Source: a virus (lineage: Duplodnaviria; Heunggongvirae; Uroviricota; Caudoviricetes). From it: a stretch of 18,239 nt of DNA. The DNA is taken from IMG/VR virus record IMGVR_UViG_2609459801_000018; one strand, written 5' to 3'. The notes under the pieces are model-generated. The model saw nothing but the letters and a program-made list of their open reading frames with translations, was not told where the DNA came from and did not search any database. Positions 2,786 through 18,239 of the stretch are shown one piece after another (position 1 is the stretch's first letter; the number at the start of each line of letters is the position of its first letter). Both the position numbers and the translations under genes were made by a program.

Positions 2786-3682
2786 ATGCCTGCTGTTGAC
2801 CTTTCCCAGTTACCGGAACCCGCCATCATCGCGAAGCCTGATTTTGAGGCAATTCTGGCTGACACAAAGGCCATGATGATTGCGTCCTATCCTGCCGAAC
2901 AGCGTGAAGCCGTCTCCGCCGCGCTGGAGCTGGAATCGGAACCCCTGAACGTTATCGCTCAAACCATGTCTTTTCGTGAAATGCTGTTACGCCAGCGGGT
3001 TAACGAGGGCGCACGCGCCTGCATGTTAAGCCACGGTTCAGGGACAAACCTGGACAACCTCGCGGGCAATATGAACACAAAGCGCCTGGTTATCACTCCG
3101 GCAACGGATACCACCGACGCGGTGATGGAGAGCGACACCTCGCTGAGATTGCGGGCGCAACGGGCGTATGACGGCCTGAGTGTTGCTGGCCCGTCAGGTG
3201 CATACGAGTATTTTGCACGCAGCGCCAGCGGTCTGGTGCGTGATGCGCGGGCCATCAGCCCGTCTCCGGCCTGTGTGACGGTTTCCATCCTGTCCACTGA
3301 AGGCGACGGCACAGCAACGGAGGCGTTGCTTAATACCGTTCGCGCCGTTCTGAATGCAGAGGATACCCGCCCGGTGGCCGACCGCCTGACCGTACAGAGC
3401 GCCAGAATCGTGACATGGCGGCTGAATGCAAAACTGTACTTTTACCCCGGCCCGGAATCCGAACCTATTCTGGCCGCGGCTGAATCGTCGTTCAGGAAGT
3501 GGCTGGCTGAGCAGGGGCTTATCGGTCAGGACGTGGCGTTGTCCGCCATTGCTGCCGCACTGCATGTGCACGGTGTGCAACGCGTGGAGATAATCGAACC
3601 CACACAGAATATGGCCATCAGCGACATACAGGCGGCGCGCTGTGAGTCATTCACCATCAGCGAAGGTGGACGCAATGAGTAA
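2786..3682 (+). CDS. baseplate assembly protein J
   Basis: 298 aa, sitting between W and I as in P2; length and position fit gpJ. Confidence 0.8.
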   Translation: MPAVDLSQLPEPAIIAKPDFEAILADTKAMMIASYPAEQREAVSAALELESEPLNVIAQTMSFREMLLRQRVNEGARACMLSHGSGTNLDNLAGNMNTKRLVITPATDTTDAVMESDTSLRLRAQRAYDGLSVAGPSGAYEYFARSASGLVRDARAISPSPACVTVSILSTEGDGTATEALLNTVRAVLNAEDTRPVADRLTVQSARIVTWRLNAKLYFYPGPESEPILAAAESSFRKWLAEQGLIGQDVALSAIAAALHVHGVQRVEIIEPTQNMAISDIQAARCESFTISEGGRNE

Positions 3683-4283
3683 TTCGTTGTTACCACCATC
3701 AGCCAGCAATTTCATGCGTTGTGCCGAAGCCGTCGGAACACGCATTACAGACATTCCGGTAGACCTCAACACGCTGTGGTCGCCGGACACCTGCCCGGTG
3801 CATCTGCTGCCTTATCTCGCCTGGGCGTTTTCCGTTGACCGCTGGGATCGCAACTGGCCGGAAGAGACAAAGCGACAGGTGATTCGTGATGCATGGCTGA
3901 TACACCGACACAAAGGGACCATCAGCGCACTGCGAAGAGCCGTGGAGCCTCTCGGCTACCTGATTGAAGTAAAGGAGTGGTGGCAACTCAACGAGGAGCC
4001 GGGAACATTTCGCATTGTTGTCGGAGTACTTGATCAGGGCATCACCGATGAAATGCATCAGGAACTTGAGCGCCTTATTGCGGATGCAAAACCAGTAAGT
4101 CGCCATCTGACGGGGCTGGCGATCAGCCTGAGTGTGAACGGAAAGATTTTCGTTGGTACGGGATGCTATCACGGCGATGCCCTGACGGTTTATCCCTACA
4201 CCCCGGAGTCCATTATTGTCGAAGGGGACTATTTCCCTGCCCCGGCCATTCATTTAATTGATAATCTGAGAGTAAACGCATGA
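3675..4283 (+). CDS. baseplate/tail protein I
   Basis: Contains gpI-like motifs (LWSPDTCP..LLPYLAWAFSVDRWD, ERLIADAKPVSRHL). The start is chosen at the ATG at 3675, which overlaps the J stop (ATGAGTAA), rather than the ORF-track start at 3642. Confidence 0.8.
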   Translation: MSNSLLPPSASNFMRCAEAVGTRITDIPVDLNTLWSPDTCPVHLLPYLAWAFSVDRWDRNWPEETKRQVIRDAWLIHRHKGTISALRRAVEPLGYLIEVKEWWQLNEEPGTFRIVVGVLDQGITDEMHQELERLIADAKPVSRHLTGLAISLSVNGKIFVGTGCYHGDALTVYPYTPESIIVEGDYFPAPAIHLIDNLRVNA

Positions 4284-5950
4284 CAGTGAAATACTACGCT
4301 ATTCTGACTAATCAGGGCGCGGCACGACTGGCTAACGCGACGATGCTCGGCAGTAAACTGAATCTGACGCAAATGGCCGTTGGTGATGCAAATGGTGTGT
4401 TACCAACACCAGACCCTGCACAAACAAAACTGATTAACCAGAAACGCATTGCACCGCTGAATCTTCTGAGTGTTGACCCTAACAATCAGAGCCAGATTAT
4501 TGCGGAGCAAATCATCCCTGAAAACGAGGGAGGATTCTGGATCCGTGAGATTGGTCTTTATGATGATGAAGGTGCACTCATTGCGGTGGCAAACTGCCCG
4601 GAAACGTACAAACCGCAGTTGCAGGAAGGCAGTGGACGCACCCAGACTATCCGCATGATTCTGGTTGTCACGAACACCGAAGCCATCACGCTGAAAATCG
4701 ACCCGTCTGTGGTTCTGGCAACCCGCAAATATGTGGATGATAAAATATCAGAGCACGAACAATCACGACGTCACCCGGACGCCTCGCTGACCGTAAAAGG
4801 TTTTACTCAGTTAAGCAGTGCAATTAACAGTGAATCAGAAACACTGGCCGCAACACCGAAAGCGGTTAAGGCTGCATATGACCTGGCTAACGGGAAATAT
4901 ACCGCCCAGAACGCCACCACTACACAAAAAGGGATTGTTCAGCTCAGTAGCGCCACGAACAGCACGTCTGAAACGCTGGCAGCGACACCAAAAGCTGTTA
5001 AGGCGGTAATGGATGAAACGAACAAGAAAGCACCATTAAACAGCCCGGCACTGACCGGAACGCCAACAACACCAACAGCGCCACAGGGGGCTAATAGTAC
5101 CCAGATCGCAAGCACGGCTTTCGTTATGGCCGCGATTGCCGCACTTGTAGATTCGTCACCTGATGCACTGAACACGCTGAACGAACTGGCTGCGGCGCTG
5201 GGCAATGACCCGAATTTTGCGACCACCATGACTAACGCGCTTGCGGGTAAGCAACCGAAGAATGCCACCCTGACGGCGCTGGCGAAGCTTGCTACATCAG
5301 CAGATAAACTCCCATATTTTACAGGGGCAGATCGTGCCGCGTTAACCGCGTTGACAAGTGTTGGACGTGCCATTCTTGGTAAAACCAGCACTCAGGGAGT
5401 TCTTGATTACCTTGGTTTGGGGGAAGGCTCTGCACTGCCCGTTGGTGTACCTGTTCCGTGGCCCTCAGCCACTCCACCAACGGGCTGGCTGAAATGCAAC
5501 GGCGCAGCATTTTCTCCTGAAGATTACCCCAAACTGGCACAGGCTTACCCCGCGAACAAATTACCGGATCTACGGGGTGAATTTATCCGTGGCTGGGATG
5601 ATGGACGTGGCTTGGATGCTGGGCGTGCCTTGCTAAGTCTTCAGGATGACTCTTTTGAAGCGCACAGGCATGAGTCCTTTTTTTATGCGGGTATTTCACG
5701 TAATGAGATCCCATTAAAAAATCTTCCAAGTTCAGACGAGATGCTGACTTTAAGTTCCACAACTAATGCCTTGTCCCCGGACGATATTGATGCCACCAAC
5801 TCGTTAATTGGTAATGACGATTACAACTGTCTTATCGAAGGGAATAAAAATAACAAACGAACAGCGACAGGACTGAGTACCAGTATTGTCGGCACAGCAG
5901 AAACACGCCCCCGCAACGTTGCATTCAATTACATCGTAAGAGCCGCATGA
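4280..5950 (+). CDS. tail fibre protein H; constant N-terminal part (to about 5416) fused to the currently expressed variable C-terminal cassette A (5417-5950)
   Basis: 556 aa. The N-terminal ~370 aa resemble P2 gpH, including the duplicated QLSSA.NS.SETLAATPKAVKA motif; the C-terminal part begins LGEGSALPVGVPVPWP, the conserved cassette head. ATG overlaps the I stop. Confidence 0.9.
   Translation: MTVKYYAILTNQGAARLANATMLGSKLNLTQMAVGDANGVLPTPDPAQTKLINQKRIAPLNLLSVDPNNQSQIIAEQIIPENEGGFWIREIGLYDDEGALIAVANCPETYKPQLQEGSGRTQTIRMILVVTNTEAITLKIDPSVVLATRKYVDDKISEHEQSRRHPDASLTVKGFTQLSSAINSESETLAATPKAVKAAYDLANGKYTAQNATTTQKGIVQLSSATNSTSETLAATPKAVKAVMDETNKKAPLNSPALTGTPTTPTAPQGANSTQIASTAFVMAAIAALVDSSPDALNTLNELAAALGNDPNFATTMTNALAGKQPKNATLTALAKLATSADKLPYFTGADRAALTALTSVGRAILGKTSTQGVLDYLGLGEGSALPVGVPVPWPSATPPTGWLKCNGAAFSPEDYPKLAQAYPANKLPDLRGEFIRGWDDGRGLDAGRALLSLQDDSFEAHRHESFFYAGISRNEIPLKNLPSSDEMLTLSSTTNALSPDDIDATNSLIGNDDYNCLIEGNKNNKRTATGLSTSIVGTAETRPRNVAFNYIVRAA
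5400..5425 (+). other. invertase crossover site 1 (TTCTTGATTACC-TT-GGTTTGGGGGAA), inside the H gene
   Basis: 26-bp hix/gix-like site; the conserved half-site GGTTTGGGGGAA (complement TTCCCCCAAACC) is shared with the four other copies; the left half-site TTCTTGA resembles hixL. Confidence 0.75.
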
Positions 5951-5969
5951 AAACGTTGGTTTGGGGGAA
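5944..5969 (+). other. invertase crossover site 2 (direct orientation relative to site 1)
   Basis: CGCATGAAAACG-TT-GGTTTGGGGGAA; the stop codon of H (TGA, 5948-5950) lies inside the site. Confidence 0.75.
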
Positions 5970-6437
5970 GGCTCTGCACTGCCCGTTGGTGTGCCTGTTC
6001 CATGGCCCTTAGCAACACCACCAACGGGCTGGCTGAAATGTAACGGTGCAGCATTTTCTTCTGAAATGTACCCCAAACTGGCAAAAGCCTACCCCACTAA
6101 TAAATTACCGGATTTACGCGGAGAATTTATCCGTGGCTGGGATGATGGGCGAGGAATTGATGCGGCACGCGCTTTATTGAGCATTCAAAACGGGATGTTG
6201 GAAAAACACCGCCATATTGTTGTAGCTAACGATGGATATGACACAAAAGATGAATGGGAGTTGGCTACGATTTTCAAAAAAACATATACACAAGGCAGGG
6301 GGCTTGATGCCACAAATACAGGAGGGAGTTTGATTCCATCACCAACGCTTCATTCACGAGGAAGTATTGGTAACACAGGTGGTAGTGAAACCCGCCCCCG
6401 CAATATTGCATTTAACTATATCGTGAGGGCGGCTTAG
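5961..6437 (+). CDS. alternative tail-fibre C-terminal cassette B (silent; no ATG, the ORF-track start is TTG)
   Basis: 158 codons, open, beginning LGEGSALPVGVPVPWP...GEFIRGWDDGRG and ending ETRPRNIAFNYIVRAA like the other cassettes. Confidence 0.7.
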   Translation: MGEGSALPVGVPVPWPLATPPTGWLKCNGAAFSSEMYPKLAKAYPTNKLPDLRGEFIRGWDDGRGIDAARALLSIQNGMLEKHRHIVVANDGYDTKDEWELATIFKKTYTQGRGLDATNTGGSLIPSPTLHSRGSIGNTGGSETRPRNIAFNYIVRAA

Positions 6438-6443
6438 TTATAT

Positions 6444-7055
6444 TCAACTGGCTGCTGCCAGTGGTATTTCCGGCAAGTTGATATCTGGTACCATGTTTAT
6501 ATCCATTGCGTTCAGCGCGTCTATATAATCCAGCACGGCATTAAGCCGGGTGGTTTCTGCCTGCGTCAACTTCCGCCCGGCCTGCAACTTCAACTGAATC
6601 AGACTTATGGAAGCCATTGCCGCATCAGCCAGTGACTGGCGCTTGGTTTCTGCCGCTTCTACTGCGGCACGATGTTGTGCCTCAGTATCTGTCACCCATT
6701 TTTCACCATCCCATTTATCGTATGGTGTTAACGGGGCGATAGTGGTTGTAGTTTTCGGGTAGTCACCCAGCGCCGTGATTTCTTCGGTGTTTCCCGTGTC
6801 AGTGCTATAGACGGTTTCACCACGATGGTCTGGCGCATACTCCCATGAACTTAAATTCTCCGAACGGCGGATAGCATAGCCCGCTTTATGTGCGCCCGGG
6901 GCATCTAAACAGGAATTTGCCGGAATACCGACACCCACAGCAAGATATTCAGTTGATTCGGAAATATATTCCCGTGTCTCACCATCATAGTTATAAACGA
7001 CGATGTTTCCTGCCTGTACGGCAATAAGGTCATCATTTAATATCGCGTTATTCAT
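6444..7055 (-). CDS. tail fibre assembly protein (P2 gpG / Mu U family chaperone)
   Basis: 203 aa with a tfa-like C-terminus; its ATG overlaps the stop of cassette C (TAATG), so it is translationally coupled to that cassette. Confidence 0.8.
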   Translation of the reverse strand: MNNAILNDDLIAVQAGNIVVYNYDGETREYISESTEYLAVGVGIPANSCLDAPGAHKAGYAIRRSENLSSWEYAPDHRGETVYSTDTGNTEEITALGDYPKTTTTIAPLTPYDKWDGEKWVTDTEAQHRAAVEAAETKRQSLADAAMASISLIQLKLQAGRKLTQAETTRLNAVLDYIDALNAMDINMVPDINLPEIPLAAAS

Positions 7056-7513
7056 TATGCGGTTCTCACAATATAATTGAAGGCAATATTGCGTGGGCGG
7101 TTTTCATTCCCATCTGAGGATTCCGTTCTGTATTGACTGGTAAATCTACCGTTAATTGCACCTTGCCGGACGGCGTTATCTGTCGACAACAGACTATCCC
7201 CTCTTTTGTCATTTGGCACCAGTACCGTGTTATCCCACGCATCCCATGACCGAATATTATGATAATGACTTCCTGTTAACCACCCCTGCATGCTTAAGAT
7301 GCCCCTTCCGGCATCCACCCCGCGCCCATCATCCCAGCCACGGATAAACTCACCGCGTAAATCAGGTAATTTTAACGTTGGGTAAACCTTTGCCAGATTT
7401 GGGTACATTTCAGAAGAAAATGCTGCACCGTTACATTTCAGCCAGCCCGTTGGTGGTGTGGCTGAGGGCCATGGAACAGGCACACCAACGGGCAGTGCAG
7501 AGCCTTCCCCCAA
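7055..7513 (-). CDS. alternative tail-fibre C-terminal cassette C (silent, inverted), paired with the tfa gene
   Basis: 152 codons, open, with the conserved head and the conserved tail ENRPRNIAFNYIVRTA; starts at the TTG within site 3. Confidence 0.7.
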   Translation of the reverse strand: MGEGSALPVGVPVPWPSATPPTGWLKCNGAAFSSEMYPNLAKVYPTLKLPDLRGEFIRGWDDGRGVDAGRGILSMQGWLTGSHYHNIRSWDAWDNTVLVPNDKRGDSLLSTDNAVRQGAINGRFTSQYRTESSDGNENRPRNIAFNYIVRTA

Positions 7514-7530
7514 ACCAACGTTTTCATGCT
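7505..7530 (-). other. invertase crossover site 3 (inverted relative to site 1)
   Basis: Plus strand reads TTCCCCCAAACC-AA-CGTTTTCATGCT; contains the stop codon of cassette D. Confidence 0.75.
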
Positions 7531-7952
7531 GCCCTTACGATGTAATTAAACGCAATATTACGAGGACGAATGGTTACATAATTGACCCCATCACCTCGTG
7601 AAGGTCCTGCAAATGAAAAACGGGAAAAGCTTGGTTGGTTAGAAACAATTTGGTCATAGTTATTGATTGAATGACCAGACCCAATGTCGAAATTACCTCC
7701 GTAATGAGAAAAACTTGTACCATCCTGCCCTGAAAGCAGGGTACGTCCCGCATCAATCCCGCGCCCATCATCCCAGCCACGGATAAATTCACCCCGTAAA
7801 TCCGGTAATTTATTGGTGGGGTAAGCCTTTGCCAGTCCGGGATACATTTCAGAAGAAAATGCTGCGCCGTTACATTTCAGCCAGCCCGTTGGTGGTGTTG
7901 CTGAGGACCACGGAACGGGCACACCAACGGGCAGCGCAGAGCCTTTCCCCAA
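7524..7952 (-). CDS. alternative tail-fibre C-terminal cassette D (silent, inverted)
   Basis: 142 codons, open; head is GKGSALPVGVPVPW (K in place of E), tail is RPRNIAFNYIVRAA. Confidence 0.7.
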   Translation of the reverse strand: MGKGSALPVGVPVPWSSATPPTGWLKCNGAAFSSEMYPGLAKAYPTNKLPDLRGEFIRGWDDGRGIDAGRTLLSGQDGTSFSHYGGNFDIGSGHSINNYDQIVSNQPSFSRFSFAGPSRGDGVNYVTIRPRNIAFNYIVRAA

Positions 7953-7969
7953 ACCAACGTTTTCATGCT
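7944..7969 (-). other. invertase crossover site 4 (inverted; one mismatch in the conserved half-site, TTTCCCC instead of TTCCCCC)
   Basis: Plus strand reads TTTCCCCAAACC-AA-CGTTTTCATGCT; contains the stop codon of cassette E. Confidence 0.7.
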
Positions 7970-8486
7970 GCCCTTACGATGTAATTAAACGCAATGTTGC
8001 GTGGGCGGTTTTCGTTTGCAGTTGGAACAATTTTTGAAGCATCAAGGCCAATCACTTTTGGGTAAACAGCGCCGTCTGTCCTTTCTGTCACCATACTTCT
8101 GACTAAGGAGAAATAACTATTGTTTGTTGAGGAATTTAAAGGCACCACTGCCCCCTTAAACGAGCCTACTGATTCCCATATTGAATAATTTTCAGTGTTT
8201 ACAGTCTTGAACTCACCATAGATATTACGTATGGCATCACCTTGAGCGGATAATATTGTTCTCCCCGCATCCGCACTACGTCCATCATCCCAGCCACGAA
8301 TAAATTCACCCCGTAAATCCGGTAATTTATTGGTGGGGTAAGCCTTTGCCAGTCCGGGATACATTTCAGAAGAAAATGCTGCGCCGTTACATTTCAGCCA
8401 GCCCGTTGGTGGTGTTGCTGAGGGCCACGGAACGGGCACACCAACAGGCAGCGCAGAACCTTCCCCCAAACCAACGTTTTCGTTTT
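7963..8486 (-). CDS. alternative tail-fibre C-terminal cassette E (silent, inverted)
   Basis: Open frame with conserved head LGEGSALPVGVPVPWPSATPPTGWLKCNGAAFS and tail ENRPRNIAFNYIVRAA. The ORF-track extension to 8526 starts at TTG and runs through site 5, so it is unlikely to be a real start. Confidence 0.65.
8461..8486 (-). other. invertase crossover site 5 (inverted), 55 bp upstream of the invertase start
   Basis: Plus strand reads TTCCCCCAAACC-AA-CGTTTTCGTTTT; same conserved half-site as the others, with a distinct outer arm. Confidence 0.75.
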
Positions 8487-8540
8487 TATCCCTACCTATA
8501 CCAACTATGTATTTTTCACGAAACAAAGAGGATGTTTTTT

Positions 8541-9140
8541 ATGCAAATTGGCTATGTTCGTGTGTCAACAAATGACCAGAACACGGATTTACAACGCAAT
8601 GCACTGAACTGCGCAGGATGTGAACTGATTTTTGAAGATAAAATCAGCGGAACGAAATCAGCCAGACCGGGATTGAAAAAACTGCTCAGAACGCTATCAG
8701 AAGGAGATACGCTGGTTGTCTGGAAGCTGGACAGACTGGGCAGAAGTATGAAACACCTGATCACGCTTATTGAGGAATTGCGGGAAAAAGGTGTTAATTT
8801 CCGTAGTCTGACGGACAGCATTGACACATCAACACCCATGGGGCGTTTCTTTTTTCACGTCATGGGGGCTTTAGCCGAAATGGAACGTGAATTAATTGTA
8901 GAGCGTACACTGGCCGGGCTGGCAGCAGCACGCGCACAAGGACGCATTGGCGGACGTCGCCCGAAGTTGACAAAAGAACAACACGAGCAAATAGCGAGGC
9001 TGATTAAAAACGGTCATGACAGGAAACAACTGGCGATCATTTACGACATCGGCATATCGACGATTTATCGTTATCACCCTGTAGGCGATATACAGGCTGA
9101 AGAAACAACCAGGCAGACTCAGGAAAATGAAAACCGCTAA
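8541..9140 (+). CDS. site-specific DNA invertase, small serine recombinase of the Hin/Gin/Pin/Cin/Min family
   Basis: N-terminus MQIGYVRVSTNDQNTDLQRNAL with the catalytic Ser in VSTNDQ; motifs VVWKLDRLGRS, GRFFFHVMGALAEMERELI..ERT and a C-terminal HTH region, near-identical in pattern to Pin/Gin. AGAGGA RBS 8 nt upstream of the ATG at 8541; the ORF-track start at 8346 is rejected. Confidence 0.93.
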   Translation: MQIGYVRVSTNDQNTDLQRNALNCAGCELIFEDKISGTKSARPGLKKLLRTLSEGDTLVVWKLDRLGRSMKHLITLIEELREKGVNFRSLTDSIDTSTPMGRFFFHVMGALAEMERELIVERTLAGLAAARAQGRIGGRRPKLTKEQHEQIARLIKNGHDRKQLAIIYDIGISTIYRYHPVGDIQAEETTRQTQENENR

Positions 9141-9159
9141 TCTGACCATTAGCGGTTTT
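9130..9159. terminator. bidirectional intrinsic terminator between the convergent invertase and U genes
   Basis: Perfect 12-bp inverted repeat AAAACCGCTAAT / ATTAGCGGTTTT with a 6-nt loop, flanked by T-runs on both strands. Confidence 0.6.
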
Positions 9160-9166
9160 GCGTTAA

Positions 9167-9661
9167 TCAAAACAGCCCTTTAACGGAGCTGGCCGCGCTG
9201 TTAAGGGATGATGTGACCTTATCTTTGAAGCCGGACAGCATATCACTGAACGATGAGGATTGCAGGCGCTCCCGCAAATCCTCATCACAGCGTTCAAGAG
9301 TCAGTGAAAACTCTATCTTTTTCGCCTTACCGTAGCGATCAAACTCGGAGCGGGTCGTATTCGTTCCGGTCAGGACATACATGCCGTAAATCTGCCCGAC
9401 ACCATCAATCAGAGGCCAGGGGCGTCCTGTATATGCCTGCGTGGTCAGCAACGAAAGCGACACTTCGCCACCTGTAATTTCAGGATAAAGCACACCAGAA
9501 AGAACGATGCGATCATCGCCTGCCCCGATATACTGCCAGCTTGCTGAACGGTTAACGCGTTCATTTTTCACATGCCGCCAGCTTTTGTTTTGCTGTAACT
9601 GCTGATGCGGCAACGTACGCAGCTCAAAAACAAACATGCCGTAGATCATCATCATGGCCAT
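9167..9661 (-). CDS. tail protein U
   Basis: 164 aa; N-terminus MAMMMIYGMFVFEL and the GAGDD / PLIDG motifs resemble P2 gpU; immediately downstream of T. Confidence 0.8.
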   Translation of the reverse strand: MAMMMIYGMFVFELRTLPHQQLQQNKSWRHVKNERVNRSASWQYIGAGDDRIVLSGVLYPEITGGEVSLSLLTTQAYTGRPWPLIDGVGQIYGMYVLTGTNTTRSEFDRYGKAKKIEFSLTLERCDEDLRERLQSSSFSDMLSGFKDKVTSSLNSAASSVKGLF

Positions 9662-9667
9662 GACTCC

Positions 9668-12511
9668 TCAATCTTTATCGTAAAAACTGCCACGCCCGGC
9701 ACGGGCGCGCCGTTCCATTTCTGCCCTGACCATTTCACCGACCAGTTTCGCCAGTTCGCGGGGATTCTGCGTAACAACGTTATGCAGATGAACATGAATT
9801 TCACCACCAAATCCGGAGGCAACAGGCTCCCGGTTACGGGAAGTTACAGGAACTGATGCCACTGGAGATCGTATGGCCTCCGCCACCGGGCGGGAGCTGG
9901 CCGCAACAACAGGGACCAGCGCCGGAGGCAGCGGAGCCGGGACCACGGGGGTGATATTCATTGCGGGGGCAGGCTTACTGACCTGTGCAATCTTCCGCTC
10001 CTGCCACTCCCCACGAACAGCAAGTGCGCGGGGCAGGTTCTTAAAGACAATATCGCCGGGGCCAATACGTTTTTTTGTCTCATCAACCAGCTTACCTGTG
10101 TTATCAGCAATTTTGCTGAGTCTGCGTAGCGTGCCGGTATTGCTGTCTGTGAGCGGTTTGTTGTCTTTGGGTTTATCGCCTCCGGTGCCATTGCCATTTT
10201 CCGCAGACTTCGGCGGATTGATTTTCGCAATGTCTCCCTGAAACAGAGCAACCTTGTCCTGAAGAATGGCCGCACGCTGTGCGTCTTCGATTTTCTTTCT
10301 CGCCCTTTCCGCTTCATCCGGAAGCACACCGAGTTTTTCAAGTATCCACGCCAGCGTATCCAGCAACATTTTTGCAGGCGTCAGAACAAGCTGTAGCGCG
10401 CCACCAAGAGCGTTACCGAATATCTCGCCAGCACTGGTACATTTATCCAGCGTTTCCTTGCTGGACTCCATCGGTGACAGCAGCGATTTAAACCAGTTAA
10501 ACACCTGGCTGATCCCGCTTCCGATTGCGTCAAAAACAGGACCAAACCGTTCAAAGGTTTCACGCAACGGGTTCAGCCTTTCCATAATCCCGCTGAACAC
10601 CCCGGCAAAAAATGCCCTGATGGGATCCCAGTATTTCCAGATAAGAACGGCAGCTCCGGCAAGCGCAGCCACGATAAGACCAACCGGACTGAACAGCGCC
10701 CCGATAGCGCCTCCCAGCAAAGAAACGGAACCCGTCACCATTCCCCACAGCGCAGGCAACACCCTGACGACATTCATTGACCGGGTAAGAATGTCAAAAC
10801 CAAGACGCAGGGTGGCCAGCTTCCCGTAAAGCACCCCAATAACCAGTGACAACGAGCCAATCGTTGCAGTCATTGCCAGCAACGCACCGCCTGCTATCAG
10901 TAGCTGGCGCGTCAGTACCGGATGGGCCTGCGCCAGCGAGGTGATTTTTTCAAGCACCCGCGTGAGCCACTGCGTGACAGAACGCAGCGGACCGTCAACC
11001 AGATCACTGATGCGAATACGAAGACCTTCCCATGCGCTGTCGAGATTTTTCAGGTCCCCATCAAGATTATCGGCCATTACTTTTGCAACGCGATCGGCCT
11101 CTCCCCTTGCCCCCTGCAATTCTCTGGTCAGTTTTTGCAGCTCTCCTGAACCAGCCGCCGCAACAAGCGTCTGCAAACCAACGAACGCCTCTTCTCCGGC
11201 GATGTCCTTGAAGAAGGAGACCTGGTCCACCTGTCCGTATTTTTGTGTCGCCTTATAGAGATCAAGCAGCACATCCTCCATCGGGCGCATTTTGCCTCTG
11301 GCGTCAGCAACTGACACCCCCAGCTCTTTCAGTGCATCAGCCGCAGCTTTTGGCGGTGATGCAAGGCGGGACAGACTTGCGCGCATGGCCGTGCCAGCAT
11401 CGCTTCCGCGAAGACCATTATTGGCAAGCATCCCGGCCATAGCCGCCGCTTCTTCAAGACTGATACCAAGTTTTGCGGCAACCGGACCGGTATACTTCAT
11501 GGTTTCGCCCAGCGCGCGTAAATCAGTATTGGTCCGGGTGAATGCCGCTGTCAGCGTATCGCCAACCCGGTCCATTTGATCGGCTGTCAGGTTGAACTGT
11601 GTGAGGATATTGGAGCCTATATCCGCCGTCTCGCCGAGTTCGACGCCACCTGCCAGCGCCATATTAAGAACACCGGGCAATGCGGCCTGAATGGCCTGCG
11701 GAGTAAAACCAGCCATTGCCAGAAAGCTCTGCCCACTGGCGGCATCACTCGCAGTAAACTGTGTTTCAGAGCCAAGTTTTAACGCCTGCTCACGCAGCGC
11801 CTTAAACTGCGGGCTGTTTTTGTCGATTCGCGTCAGTGCCTGAACGCGGGACATCTCTTTGCCGAACCCGATCGCAGGCTGCAAAAAACGCCCGGCAGCA
11901 TAGCCGCCCGCCGCTGCCGCACCAATTGCCAGCGCACCACCTGTTTTCAGTTTTCCCGCGGTTTCCTGCGCGCGCGAATACCGCTCACGCGCCCGCGTTA
12001 CACGCGCAAGCGCCTGCCGTTCGCGTTCAAGCTGGTTGTTGTACTGTTCGGTGCGTCTGATGGCCTGCTGGATGGTGTTATCGCTGCCTGTCAGGGAAAT
12101 GCCGTGGCGTTTCAGCTCTCCGCCAAGCTCCCGCATTTTCTGAATTTCCCGTGTGCGCGATTCATTCAGGCGTTCAAGCCGGGTGCTTAACTGCTGCATC
12201 AGCTTTTGTTGTTTTTCGCTGAGCACTGTACCCGTGCGTTGTAACTGATTAAGGGCGTTAAGCTGGCGTCGTGCTTTCACGATACCCGCATCCGCTTTAC
12301 TGACAGCGTCGCGGGCGCGCTCAAATGATCGCGCCTGACGCTCGAGATTTTTGATCGCCCCCTGCGTTCGCTGGATGGAGTCACCAAACTGCCCCATCAG
12401 GCGGCGGGCGTTTTCGGCAGGCCGGGTCAGCCTGTCAACGGCGCTGAAAGCGACCCGGATATCAAGAGTCTTCATTGTCTGCATTCCCGCTGCGAAGTGC
12501 CGCCCGCTCAC
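9668..12511 (-). CDS. tail tape measure protein T
   Basis: 947 aa, coiled-coil N-terminal region, Ala/Gly-rich hydrophobic central segments, typical position between E' and U. The start is uncertain: GTG at 12511, or ATG at about 12484 or 12475. Confidence 0.88.
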   Translation of the reverse strand: MSGRHFAAGMQTMKTLDIRVAFSAVDRLTRPAENARRLMGQFGDSIQRTQGAIKNLERQARSFERARDAVSKADAGIVKARRQLNALNQLQRTGTVLSEKQQKLMQQLSTRLERLNESRTREIQKMRELGGELKRHGISLTGSDNTIQQAIRRTEQYNNQLERERQALARVTRARERYSRAQETAGKLKTGGALAIGAAAAGGYAAGRFLQPAIGFGKEMSRVQALTRIDKNSPQFKALREQALKLGSETQFTASDAASGQSFLAMAGFTPQAIQAALPGVLNMALAGGVELGETADIGSNILTQFNLTADQMDRVGDTLTAAFTRTNTDLRALGETMKYTGPVAAKLGISLEEAAAMAGMLANNGLRGSDAGTAMRASLSRLASPPKAAADALKELGVSVADARGKMRPMEDVLLDLYKATQKYGQVDQVSFFKDIAGEEAFVGLQTLVAAAGSGELQKLTRELQGARGEADRVAKVMADNLDGDLKNLDSAWEGLRIRISDLVDGPLRSVTQWLTRVLEKITSLAQAHPVLTRQLLIAGGALLAMTATIGSLSLVIGVLYGKLATLRLGFDILTRSMNVVRVLPALWGMVTGSVSLLGGAIGALFSPVGLIVAALAGAAVLIWKYWDPIRAFFAGVFSGIMERLNPLRETFERFGPVFDAIGSGISQVFNWFKSLLSPMESSKETLDKCTSAGEIFGNALGGALQLVLTPAKMLLDTLAWILEKLGVLPDEAERARKKIEDAQRAAILQDKVALFQGDIAKINPPKSAENGNGTGGDKPKDNKPLTDSNTGTLRRLSKIADNTGKLVDETKKRIGPGDIVFKNLPRALAVRGEWQERKIAQVSKPAPAMNITPVVPAPLPPALVPVVAASSRPVAEAIRSPVASVPVTSRNREPVASGFGGEIHVHLHNVVTQNPRELAKLVGEMVRAEMERRARAGRGSFYDKD

Positions 12512-12991
12512 GCCAGCTAACCACTTCGCCGGGCGTCATCATGAAGATTTCGGCGGGCGACCAGTTAAAAATGGCGGCAATATCCGCCACAAAGTCTTCT
12601 ATGTGCTCAAAGCACACAACCGTGATCAGGCTTCCGTCGCCTGTTCGCTCTTCCCGCCAGAGTCCGCACCGCTCAAAAAATTTACGGCAACCACACATAA
12701 CTGAATAAAATCACGGGATGCCATTTTTTTGATCGTCACTTCATCCAGTCGTGGCGAGGTCACGCGTGACAGCAGCGTAAACATGGATTCCGCTTTCAGA
12801 TTCAGCACATCAGACAGCGACAAATCTCGCAGAGATCCAGCCTGCTCAATAGCCCCGGTGATCTCCACATACGTGATTTTTTCGCCGCCTCGCTCAATTG
12901 GTTGGGTAAGTTTTACGCCACGCTCACTGGTTTCTTTCACAGTGTCAGTAACTACCGTGTTTTCGGTATCGATGTTTTTCGTCTCTTTCAT
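12462..12991 (-). CDS. tail assembly chaperone E' (E+E' fusion made by a programmed -1 frameshift near 12674-12680)
   Basis: ORF 12462-12698 is in the -1 frame relative to E and is open from just downstream of the TTTTTTG site. Shifting there gives ...VAVNFFERCGLW..., matching the second ORF. Its end overlaps the start of T. Confidence 0.7.
12626..12991 (-). CDS. tail assembly chaperone E
   Basis: 121 aa, acidic, between the tube gene and T; contains the slippery heptamer, as in the P2 E/E' arrangement. Confidence 0.8.
   Translation of the reverse strand: MKETKNIDTENTVVTDTVKETSERGVKLTQPIERGGEKITYVEITGAIEQAGSLRDLSLSDVLNLKAESMFTLLSRVTSPRLDEVTIKKMASRDFIQLCVVAVNFLSGADSGGKSEQATEA
12674..12680 (-). 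promoter_or_regulatory. programmed -1 ribosomal frameshift slippery site TTTTTTG (E to E')
   Basis: The coding (minus) strand reads AAT TTT TTG AGC in the E frame; the downstream -1 frame is open for about 70 codons. Confidence 0.65.
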
Positions 12992-16049: not shown

Positions 16050-16310
16050 ATGTTCCGTTGTCCGCTTTGTGGCGCATCTGCCCGTATCCGCACCAGTCGT
16101 TCGGAAAATGATTCAAACACCGTACGGAAAAAATATTACCAGTGTAACAACCTGGAATGCGGCATAAGTTTCTCAACACTGGAAGCTTTCCATAAATTCA
16201 CATCGAAACACGCCCCCGGCGTTCACTCTTCAGAAGGTATCCCGTGGCATGAGTTGCCAGCTTCACACAGGGGAAACAATCAGATGAGTTTGCCTTTATC
16301 TCAGAATTAA
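16050..16310 (+). CDS. ogr: Ogr/Delta-family zinc-finger late transcription activator
   Basis: N-terminus MFRCPLCGASARIRTSR....YYQCNNLECGISF reproduces the Ogr C-x2-C...C-x4-C zinc-finger pattern; AAGGGAGG RBS; located after D as in P2. Confidence 0.8.
   Translation: MFRCPLCGASARIRTSRSENDSNTVRKKYYQCNNLECGISFSTLEAFHKFTSKHAPGVHSSEGIPWHELPASHRGNNQMSLPLSQN

Positions 16311-16946: not shown

Positions 16947-18239
<1,293 letters not shown>

Follow-up and report, generated by a model that had tools for sequence, protein, structure and literature searches.

A tail-fibre inversion switch with five collar-type cassettes and one Tfa chaperone gene that may serve them all

The DNA analysed here (IMG/VR record IMGVR_UViG_2609459801_000018; 18,239 nucleotides, the window in what follows) carries a tail-fibre switch in which five alternative fibre C-termini are accompanied by a single gene, tfa, for a tail-fibre assembly chaperone. 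The constant part of the fibre gene H (P2 gpH-like; positions 4280–5411, plus strand) matches the Pfam families Phage_tail_fib (E value 1.3e-62) and Phage_fiber_2 and is at present joined to cassette A (5414–5950, plus), the expressed tip, in one continuous open reading frame (ORF; 4280–5950, plus). The other four cassettes are silent: B (segment 5958–6437, ORF 5961–6437, plus), C (segment 7055–7516, ORF 7055–7513, minus), and the single-ended cassettes D (segment 7524–7955, ORF 7524–7952, minus) and E (segment 7963–8472, ORF 7963–8484, minus). All five cassettes match the Pfam family Collar, with E values between 1e-13 and 5e-15. The tfa gene (6444–7055, minus) lies between B and C and encodes a protein of 203 residues of the lambda Tfa type.

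Five crossover sites, each of 12 + 2 + 12 base pairs (bp) with an AA/TT core, delimit these parts and have the orientations +,+,−,−,−. Site 1 lies inside H (5400–5425, core TT at 5412–5413) and is followed by site 2 (5944–5969, core TT at 5956–5957), site 3 (7505–7530, core 7517–7518), site 4 (7944–7969, core 7956–7957) and site 5 (8461–8486, core 8473–8474), which forms the fixed right-hand limit of the invertible DNA. Sites 1 through 4 were recognised from the sequence and from repeat families (D2, I3, I4 and I6 for site 1), and site 5 from the sequence and from relatives. The sites fit the Din-type pattern AAACC-AA-xGTTT, which is seen beside the invertase in all related loci, and phage P88 has a gix-like site. 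To the right stands the gene for a serine DNA invertase of the Din family (8541–9140, plus; Gin/Cin/Pin/Min-like), identified by its matches to Resolvase (2.1e-51) and HTH_7 (1.4e-12). Three hallmarks of a Din-family switch are present, namely a small serine recombinase with catalytic and helix-turn-helix parts, inverted sites of about 26 bp, and existing isomers. The switch is of the Min/Pin multiple-inversion type and sits in a P88-like (Xuanwuvirus) prophage of the P2 family. As a minor feature of the sites, the stops of A, D and E (5947–5950, 7526–7523 and 7965–7962) are written ATGA, and the ATG within the stop of A opens an out-of-frame ORF of 21 codons that spans the next crossover site; such short ORFs are probably a by-product of the conserved site sequence.

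The tfa product matches Pfam Caudo_TAP over residues 78–198 (E value 8.9e-31; 107.2 bits against a cut-off of 22.1) and aligns over its full length with lambda Tfa at 35% identity (E value 5e-34). Its DNA is 84% identical to the tfa genes of HK97 and SfIV, and a search of the Tfa sequence against solved structures gave no match. The stop of cassette C (7057–7055) and the ATG of tfa (7055–7053) share one base in the sequence TAATG, as do the stop and start of the lambda stf/tfa pair, and the stops of B and tfa face each other across 6 bp (6438–6443). An earlier reading of the window from its letters (the original prediction) had described both the TAATG overlap at 7053–7057 and the 6-bp convergence on B, and had counted one tfa gene for five cassettes. 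Each of these statements was confirmed, the count by the ORFs, by the single gene matching Caudo_TAP and by phmmer: searched against all six frames of the window, its own Tfa and the two Tfa proteins of P88 picked up no further tfa-like sequence. Another copy just beyond the window, which the prediction had allowed for, is unlikely: the right end of the window is the end of the prophage followed by host DNA and therefore leaves no place for one on that side, and the complete related prophage of Escherichia coli CB9615 has one annotated tfa in about 35 kb. In all loci, an element resembling a Shine-Dalgarno sequence (GAGA/GAGGG) lies within the conserved "IVR" codons 8–10 nucleotides 5′ of the tfa ATG, so that tfa can probably be translated independently of the translation of cassette C.

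Gin/Hin-type invertases recombine inverted sites only. Under the assumption that recombination takes place exclusively between inverted sites, our search found 48 reachable isomers, and tfa is co-oriented with H in 24 of them. The B–tfa–C unit is the sole double-ended segment, A, D and E being single-ended and flanked by direct repeats, and in every isomer it lies where plus- and minus-oriented cassettes meet. Each of A, D and E is the expressed cassette in 12 isomers, and 6 of these 12 have tfa co-oriented. C is expressed in 6 isomers, all of them with tfa co-oriented, and B likewise in 6, none of them with tfa co-oriented; because B shares the double-ended segment with tfa and C, tfa always converges on B. 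The tfa gene thus flips independently of most cassettes. In the present isomer, tfa opposes the expressed H–A fibre. The observation in the original prediction that this fibre has no co-oriented chaperone gene holds for that isomer but not for the locus, because it takes only one inversion, of the DNA between sites 2 and 3, to bring C and tfa onto the strand of H–A, directly 3′ of it.

The five cassettes resemble one another at their ends only. Fifty-seven of the first 76 residues and 12 of the last 14 are invariant among them, and the centres, of 60–90 residues, are unalignable. Cassette A aligns with the T4 gp37 tip (2XGF; E value 3.5e-19) through the N-terminal collar and the last residues, where the motif ..NVAFNYIVRAA of the cassette corresponds to ..NIAFNYIVRLA of gp37, and cassette C aligns likewise at both ends with the C-terminal part of lambda Stf. 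In gp37, residues 811–881 and 1010–1026 jointly form the collar domain D10, and the chain goes from the collar to the receptor-binding end and then returns (PMC6957217). Because the gp37 chain returns to its collar, the conserved ends of each cassette are, by analogy, one structural unit and the variable centre is the distal receptor-binding tip. At the needle position, as read from sequence only, a His-x-His motif is present as HRH in A and B and as HYH in C; D shows just HYG there, and E lacks such a motif.

Related loci were fetched via the Tfa protein, which leaves the sample unbiased as to orientation, and they form two classes. Class 1 holds the loci with a tfa 82–100% identical to that of the window (n = 32, the window included) and class 2 those at 77–80% identity. 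All 32 loci of class 1 have the single-tfa design, with 2–10 collar cassettes each, and they include chromosomal prophages, P1-like plasmids (e.g. L050; such numbers are our handles for loci) and a two-cassette minimal form, L047, in which H–B faces tfa and C. Every one of them follows the same rule, by which one double-ended segment holds tfa and the other cassettes converge on it. The single-tfa layout is therefore not peculiar to the window and is standard for a large class of E. coli prophages and P1-like plasmids. Both orientations of tfa are met with in nature: the IMG/VR subset found through tfa alone splits into 12 loci that have the gene co-oriented with H and 12 that have it anti-oriented. 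Locus L051, with a 100% identical tfa, has the arrangement H–C tfa(+) B(−), and in L047, L063, L066 and L073 the expressed cassette is the partner on which tfa converges (the H–B-type state). A probable palindromic duplication is seen within class 1 in L054 (IMGVR_UViG_2541047915_000010), which reads, at about 3640–7100, H, D type, B type, tfa(−), C, C, tfa(+), B type(−), invertase; here the central segment appears duplicated, possibly as an assembly artefact from mixed isomers.

Class 2 consists of the classic two-cassette segment with two tfa genes of different type. One side carries a collar cassette and a Tfa of 201 residues of the window type, which has the N-terminal domain; the other carries a non-collar tip (a weak match to Gp53-like_C) and a Tfa of 147 residues without that domain. 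Two tfa genes are kept only where the paired tips differ in fold, and all-collar arrays keep one. The tfa genes themselves directly follow a collar cassette in 75 of 75 related cases, which in the window is true of C only and not of A, B, D or E. Within class 2, however closely the Tfa proteins resemble one another, the cassettes before them vary: clusters of Tfa at least 95% identical stand directly 3′ of 3–5 cassette types each, the B and E types of the window included. Such near-identity beside several cassette types suggests that Tfa is blind to the variable centres. B-type cassettes have their own tfa directly 3′ in L008, L101, L111 and L118, and E-type (group 2) cassettes are directly coupled to their own Tfa in seven loci. 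A separate feature of class 2 (L005, L006, L081, L085, L098–L100, L111 and others) is a sigma-54-like motif, TGGCAT-N5-(C)TGCT, about 30–50 bp 5′ of the invertase ATG; the class of the window has a different spacer that lacks it.

From these comparisons of sequence we consider it probable that the Min/Pin-type switch of the window is served by one generalist Tfa, matched to the fold of the tips and acting in trans on all five. On this model, the serine invertase would recombine the five sites and so fuse any of the five C-terminal cassettes to the constant part of H. All five tips share the collar-needle-head fold of T4 gp37 and lambda Stf, in which the conserved residues, about 75 at the N-terminus and about 14 at the C-terminus, form the collar and the centre the receptor-binding end. 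The N-terminal domain of Tfa would be matched to this fold and not to a single cassette, and Tfa would act on whichever cassette is fused to H. One copy would then suffice for such an array, and switches with two folds keep two. All five tips, we infer, would need Tfa. Passages in the literature describe gp37 as requiring the chaperone gp38, which lambda Tfa can replace (PMC9659904 citing Montag 1989; PMC6957217), the fibre tips of the gp37/Stf family as always trailed by a chaperone gene (PMC9659904), and Tfa proteins as having an N-terminal domain specific to the fibre and a C-terminal domain that is conserved (PMC9608196 citing North 2019). The work of lambda Tfa on T4 gp37 is a precedent for one chaperone serving diverged tips, and a "common chaperone" has been proposed for xenorhabdicin fibre variants (PMC13280938). 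Among the options in the original prediction was that one tfa serves several C-termini through their conserved ends, and it is this option that the comparative data support well.

The pattern of coupling nevertheless weighs against a generalist Tfa in two respects. First, all-collar arrays link tfa almost always to the C type: in class 1 the gene converges on the B type or on one other type, and the C type stands directly 5′ of it in nearly every locus with a typable cassette, the other cassettes varying by locus. Second, D-type cassettes were never directly coupled to a tfa in the sampled loci. Both observations would fit a chaperone dedicated to C as well. In that case only C would need Tfa, and A, B, D and E would trimerise unaided or with host chaperones; consistent with this, a swap of the xenorhabdicin fibre alone changed specificity, and the authors regarded the chaperone as possibly non-essential (PMC13280938). 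We think a dedicated chaperone quite unlikely, because the B and E types found with their own tfa in class 2 have a Tfa 77–80% identical to that of the window, because essentially one Tfa sequence pairs with up to five cassette types, and because the homologous tip of gp37 depends on gp38 or Tfa.

Cassette B bears on whether isomers in which tfa points away from H make working fibres. In the mapped loci, the cassettes convergent on tfa were full length in 28 of 28 cases, and the 20 copies of the B type in this position were all full length. For the 17 distinct B-type sequences convergent on tfa, none of which is truncated, the proportions of synonymous (pS) and nonsynonymous (pN) differences were 0.153 and 0.018, with an omega of 0.11. 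The variable centre of the B type gave an omega of 0.16, with 21 synonymous-only codons against 15 amino-acid-changing ones. The C type, with an omega of 0.13 overall and 0.18 in the centre, was indistinguishable from it. Note that recombination with the B cassettes of class 2 phages, which have their own tfa, may blur this test of selection, and this is a further point to be held against the generalist reading. A cassette that is never co-oriented with tfa and yet is under purifying selection makes dud isomers unlikely, and the suggestion in the original prediction that some isomers give non-functional fibres is accordingly disfavoured. The substitution pattern indicates that B fibres are functional, and B probably uses a Tfa, in which case Tfa would be available even when tfa points away from H. 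Beside the tfa stop, the 3′ end of the B type (window 6070–6437, codons 121–158) has a pS of about 0.01, against 0.1–0.36 elsewhere in B; this near-invariant end may mark a junction left by the loss of a second tfa.

If one Tfa serves every isomer, then in the 24 anti-oriented ones transcription of tfa would, we infer, start on the invertase side or within the cassettes that precede the gene. The search for such transcription counts against the generalist reading. The original prediction had suggested looking for a promoter that drives the minus strand through E, D, C and tfa, and no convincing promoter able to drive anti-oriented tfa was found in the array. A sigma-70 scan of 5300–9800 gave 3 matches versus 6.2 expected from shuffled sequence, and the sole minus-strand match 5′ of tfa is a weak CTGGCA-N16-TAAAAT (7396–7369) in the collar coding region of C. 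D and E carry a weaker version of it, and each cassette has a motif of the form CTGGCA-N16/17-TAAA(A/T)T reading toward its own 3′ end. The conservation of this motif proves nothing, because it lies in strongly conserved coding DNA. One arrangement that would express tfa independently of its orientation is transcription entering the array from both ends. Whichever way it faced, the gene would then follow one of two sources, the H late operon or leftward transcription that begins at the invertase side or in the collars of silent cassettes, and the silent cassettes would serve at the same time as promoter-bearing leaders of the shared chaperone. We offer this arrangement tentatively, as a possibility that we do not favour.

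The activator sites of P2 Ogr-type proteins have the pattern TGT-N12-ACA. An Ogr-type late promoter for minus-strand tfa was considered and rejected, as no well-placed site lies upstream of the gene. The window has two exact dyads of this pattern, which is below chance, and dyads with one mismatch occur about every 250 bp. One exact dyad (8508–8525) falls in the spacer that separates site 5 from the invertase ATG, and its conservation extends to all class 1 relatives, the P1-like plasmids included; no −10 element was found 40–50 bp to either side of it, which again tells against transcription of tfa from this end. The likely sheath and terminase promoters use TGT-N12-AGA, of which no copy is well placed 5′ of tfa, and a comparison of the region upstream of the sheath operon with the DNA 5′ of tfa gave no shared motif at 14 or more of 18 matches. 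Read-through from the convergent operon that runs from sheath to gpU was rejected as well, to the further detriment of a generalist Tfa. A good hairpin terminator (9130–9159), with a 12-bp stem and a minus-strand T run, separates that operon from the invertase (free energies of −15.6 kcal/mol on the minus and −16.9 kcal/mol on the plus strand; z scores of −3.3 and −4.1), and as a general answer read-through fails in the P1-like plasmids, which have the same design and lack that operon. No terminator-like structure was found at the B/tfa junction.

Two candidates inside cassette C were also considered. An internal restart (a Shine-Dalgarno sequence and an ATG at Met75) by which tfa would stay translationally coupled even while C is silent was rejected, the ATG being ATA in the P1-like subclass. 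Codons 76–92 (7288–7240, minus) contain a block of 47 nucleotides that is invariant across both C-type subclasses, with a synonymous diversity of 0.013 versus 0.15–0.37 around it. The block contains TTAACA-N14-TAATAT, with a spacer too short for a normal sigma-70 promoter, and it could be a hidden element 5′ of tfa or the result of mosaic ancestry. As for the dip in synonymous diversity in C (codons 69–88), a hidden element was rejected as its explanation: mosaic history is adequate, and tfa itself dips to 0.04.

No promoter was found for minus-strand tfa, a terminator stops transcription arriving from the gpU operon, and the sequence offers no guarantee of expression; the switch might simply be a costly design in which a general Tfa is made only if co-oriented and the 24 anti-oriented isomers release unfolded or missing fibres. 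We consider this unlikely. A B type in such an array can never have tfa on its own strand, yet every copy is intact and the type evolves, like C, at a low omega (0.11); two-cassette loci such as L047 would be mere on/off switches of infectivity, yet they persist; and half of the natural prophage states are anti-oriented. Alternatively, Tfa could be supplied from outside the isomer, by sister genomes flipped during lytic replication or by the tfa genes of co-induced prophages. The invertase gene lies 3′ of the H operon in the present orientation and might be reached by late read-through, clonal cultures contain inversion variants side by side at high frequency (PMC4272514), and E. coli genomes hold several related tfa genes (a median of 2 and up to 23 matching places per genome; the HK97 and SfIV genes were noted above). 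Such a supply would, on the other hand, be unreliable for a protein possibly needed stoichiometrically; the Tfa of Ur-lambda and Mu remains on the virion (PMC9608196). A mixture of isomers in one cell would mix fibre types too, and nothing in the data supports an outside supply directly; we hold it to be highly unlikely. A trans-acting tfa with its own promoter, which the original prediction had named as the finding that would overturn it, is the mechanism that the data call for.

Tail-fibre shufflons of this class are widespread and partly characterised, and the locus is an ordinary example of them. Like the window, the Min region of p15B and Min-type P1-like plasmids combine a Din-family invertase and several sites with alternative 3′ ends on a constant fibre gene; for p15B this likeness follows what Sandmeier, Iida and Arber reportedly described in 1990–92. 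The P1-like plasmid L050 shares with the window its collar cassettes, one tfa in a central segment and a closely similar region upstream of the invertase. It differs in its right flank, which holds holin and darA, whereas the switch of the window sits between the convergent tail operons of a P2-family prophage. Another report describes a P1-like plasmid whose invertase and fibre gene are Min-p15B-like (PMC6906374). Close in layout, and likewise P2-like, is the prophage of enteropathogenic E. coli E2348/69 (L133), in which inversion has been demonstrated by experiment and which reads H–X, B type, a 6-bp gap, tfa(−), C type(−), invertase, and has three cassettes instead of five. Sequencing and polymerase chain reaction revealed three inverted repeats, four coexisting variants and three alternative C-termini in it (Goldberg et al. 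2014, PMC4272514), in a report that does not discuss the chaperone. The FR-phi shufflon has three cassettes at 50/25/25% (PMC13418256), in a paper that makes no mention of a chaperone; compared by description only, these proportions fit one single-ended cassette plus one double-ended segment. The fibre loci of xenorhabdicin and P2-type tailocins (PMC13280938) are also multi-cassette, and those of xenorhabdicin differ in having no invertase of their own.

In the Mu G, P1 C, e14 P and P88 segments, a Gin/Cin/Pin-type invertase likewise swaps the fibre C-terminus and the chaperone lies inside the invertible DNA, but there are two cassettes with two chaperones (U and U′), and the chaperone is always co-transcribed with its fibre. 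The contrast with Mu and P1 on which the original prediction turned is sound, and P88 itself has the layout fibre–tfa / tfa′–fibre′. P88 and the class 2 loci have a chaperone for each fibre end, as in the Mu G/P1 C sub-type, and the window, which does not, is not of that sub-type. The expectation taken from Mu and P1 that each cassette needs its own chaperone is inapplicable here, because a single fold is common to all tips. Lambda stf-tfa and T4 gp37-gp38 resemble the window in their collar and C-terminal motif and, for lambda, in the Tfa sequence and the stop/start overlap, and differ in having one fibre and one chaperone in fixed orientation. Tail-fibre shufflons are used and engineered to widen the host range of phages and tailocins. 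If one Tfa does work for any cassette of the gp37/Stf type, arrays and synthetic phages could be given new tips with no need for a chaperone to match. One chaperone for each fold of tip, and not for each cassette, would be a simple and testable rule, and the architecture rule of a single double-ended segment with tfa allows such loci to be read quickly in genome assemblies.

As judged from Pfam domains and gene order, the window covers most of the tail region of the prophage. On the plus strand, the tail genes gpR, gpS, gpV, gpW, gpJ and gpI lead up to H, gpI (3642–4283, plus) and the baseplate genes preceding it. The minus-strand genes for sheath, tube, gpE/E′, tape measure and gpU converge on this set, and the switch sits between these two convergent operons. 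By DNA, the window groups with P88-like phages (Xuanwuvirus, Peduoviridae) and with a great many E. coli prophages, with a match to window positions 5300–9200 in 2022 of 5426 complete genomes. To the right of the tail genes are gpD, a gene for an Ogr/Delta-like late-gene activator with a zinc finger (16050–16310, plus; Pfam Ogr_Delta 1e-15), on which the late genes of this phage presumably depend and which is annotated in the CB9615 prophage too, and the host gene serS (16947–18239, minus), which marks the end of the prophage. The prophage end and attachment site must fall between about 16310 and 16947. Tube gene and tape measure are separated by two overlapping ORFs (12462–12991, minus), one of them with a P2 GpE domain; it is at this position that P2-like phages usually have the programmed E/E+E′ frameshift of their tail chaperones. 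At the left edge, the first ORF (1–738), truncated by the window edge, carries DUF6645 and stands where P2-like phages keep lysis-accessory genes.

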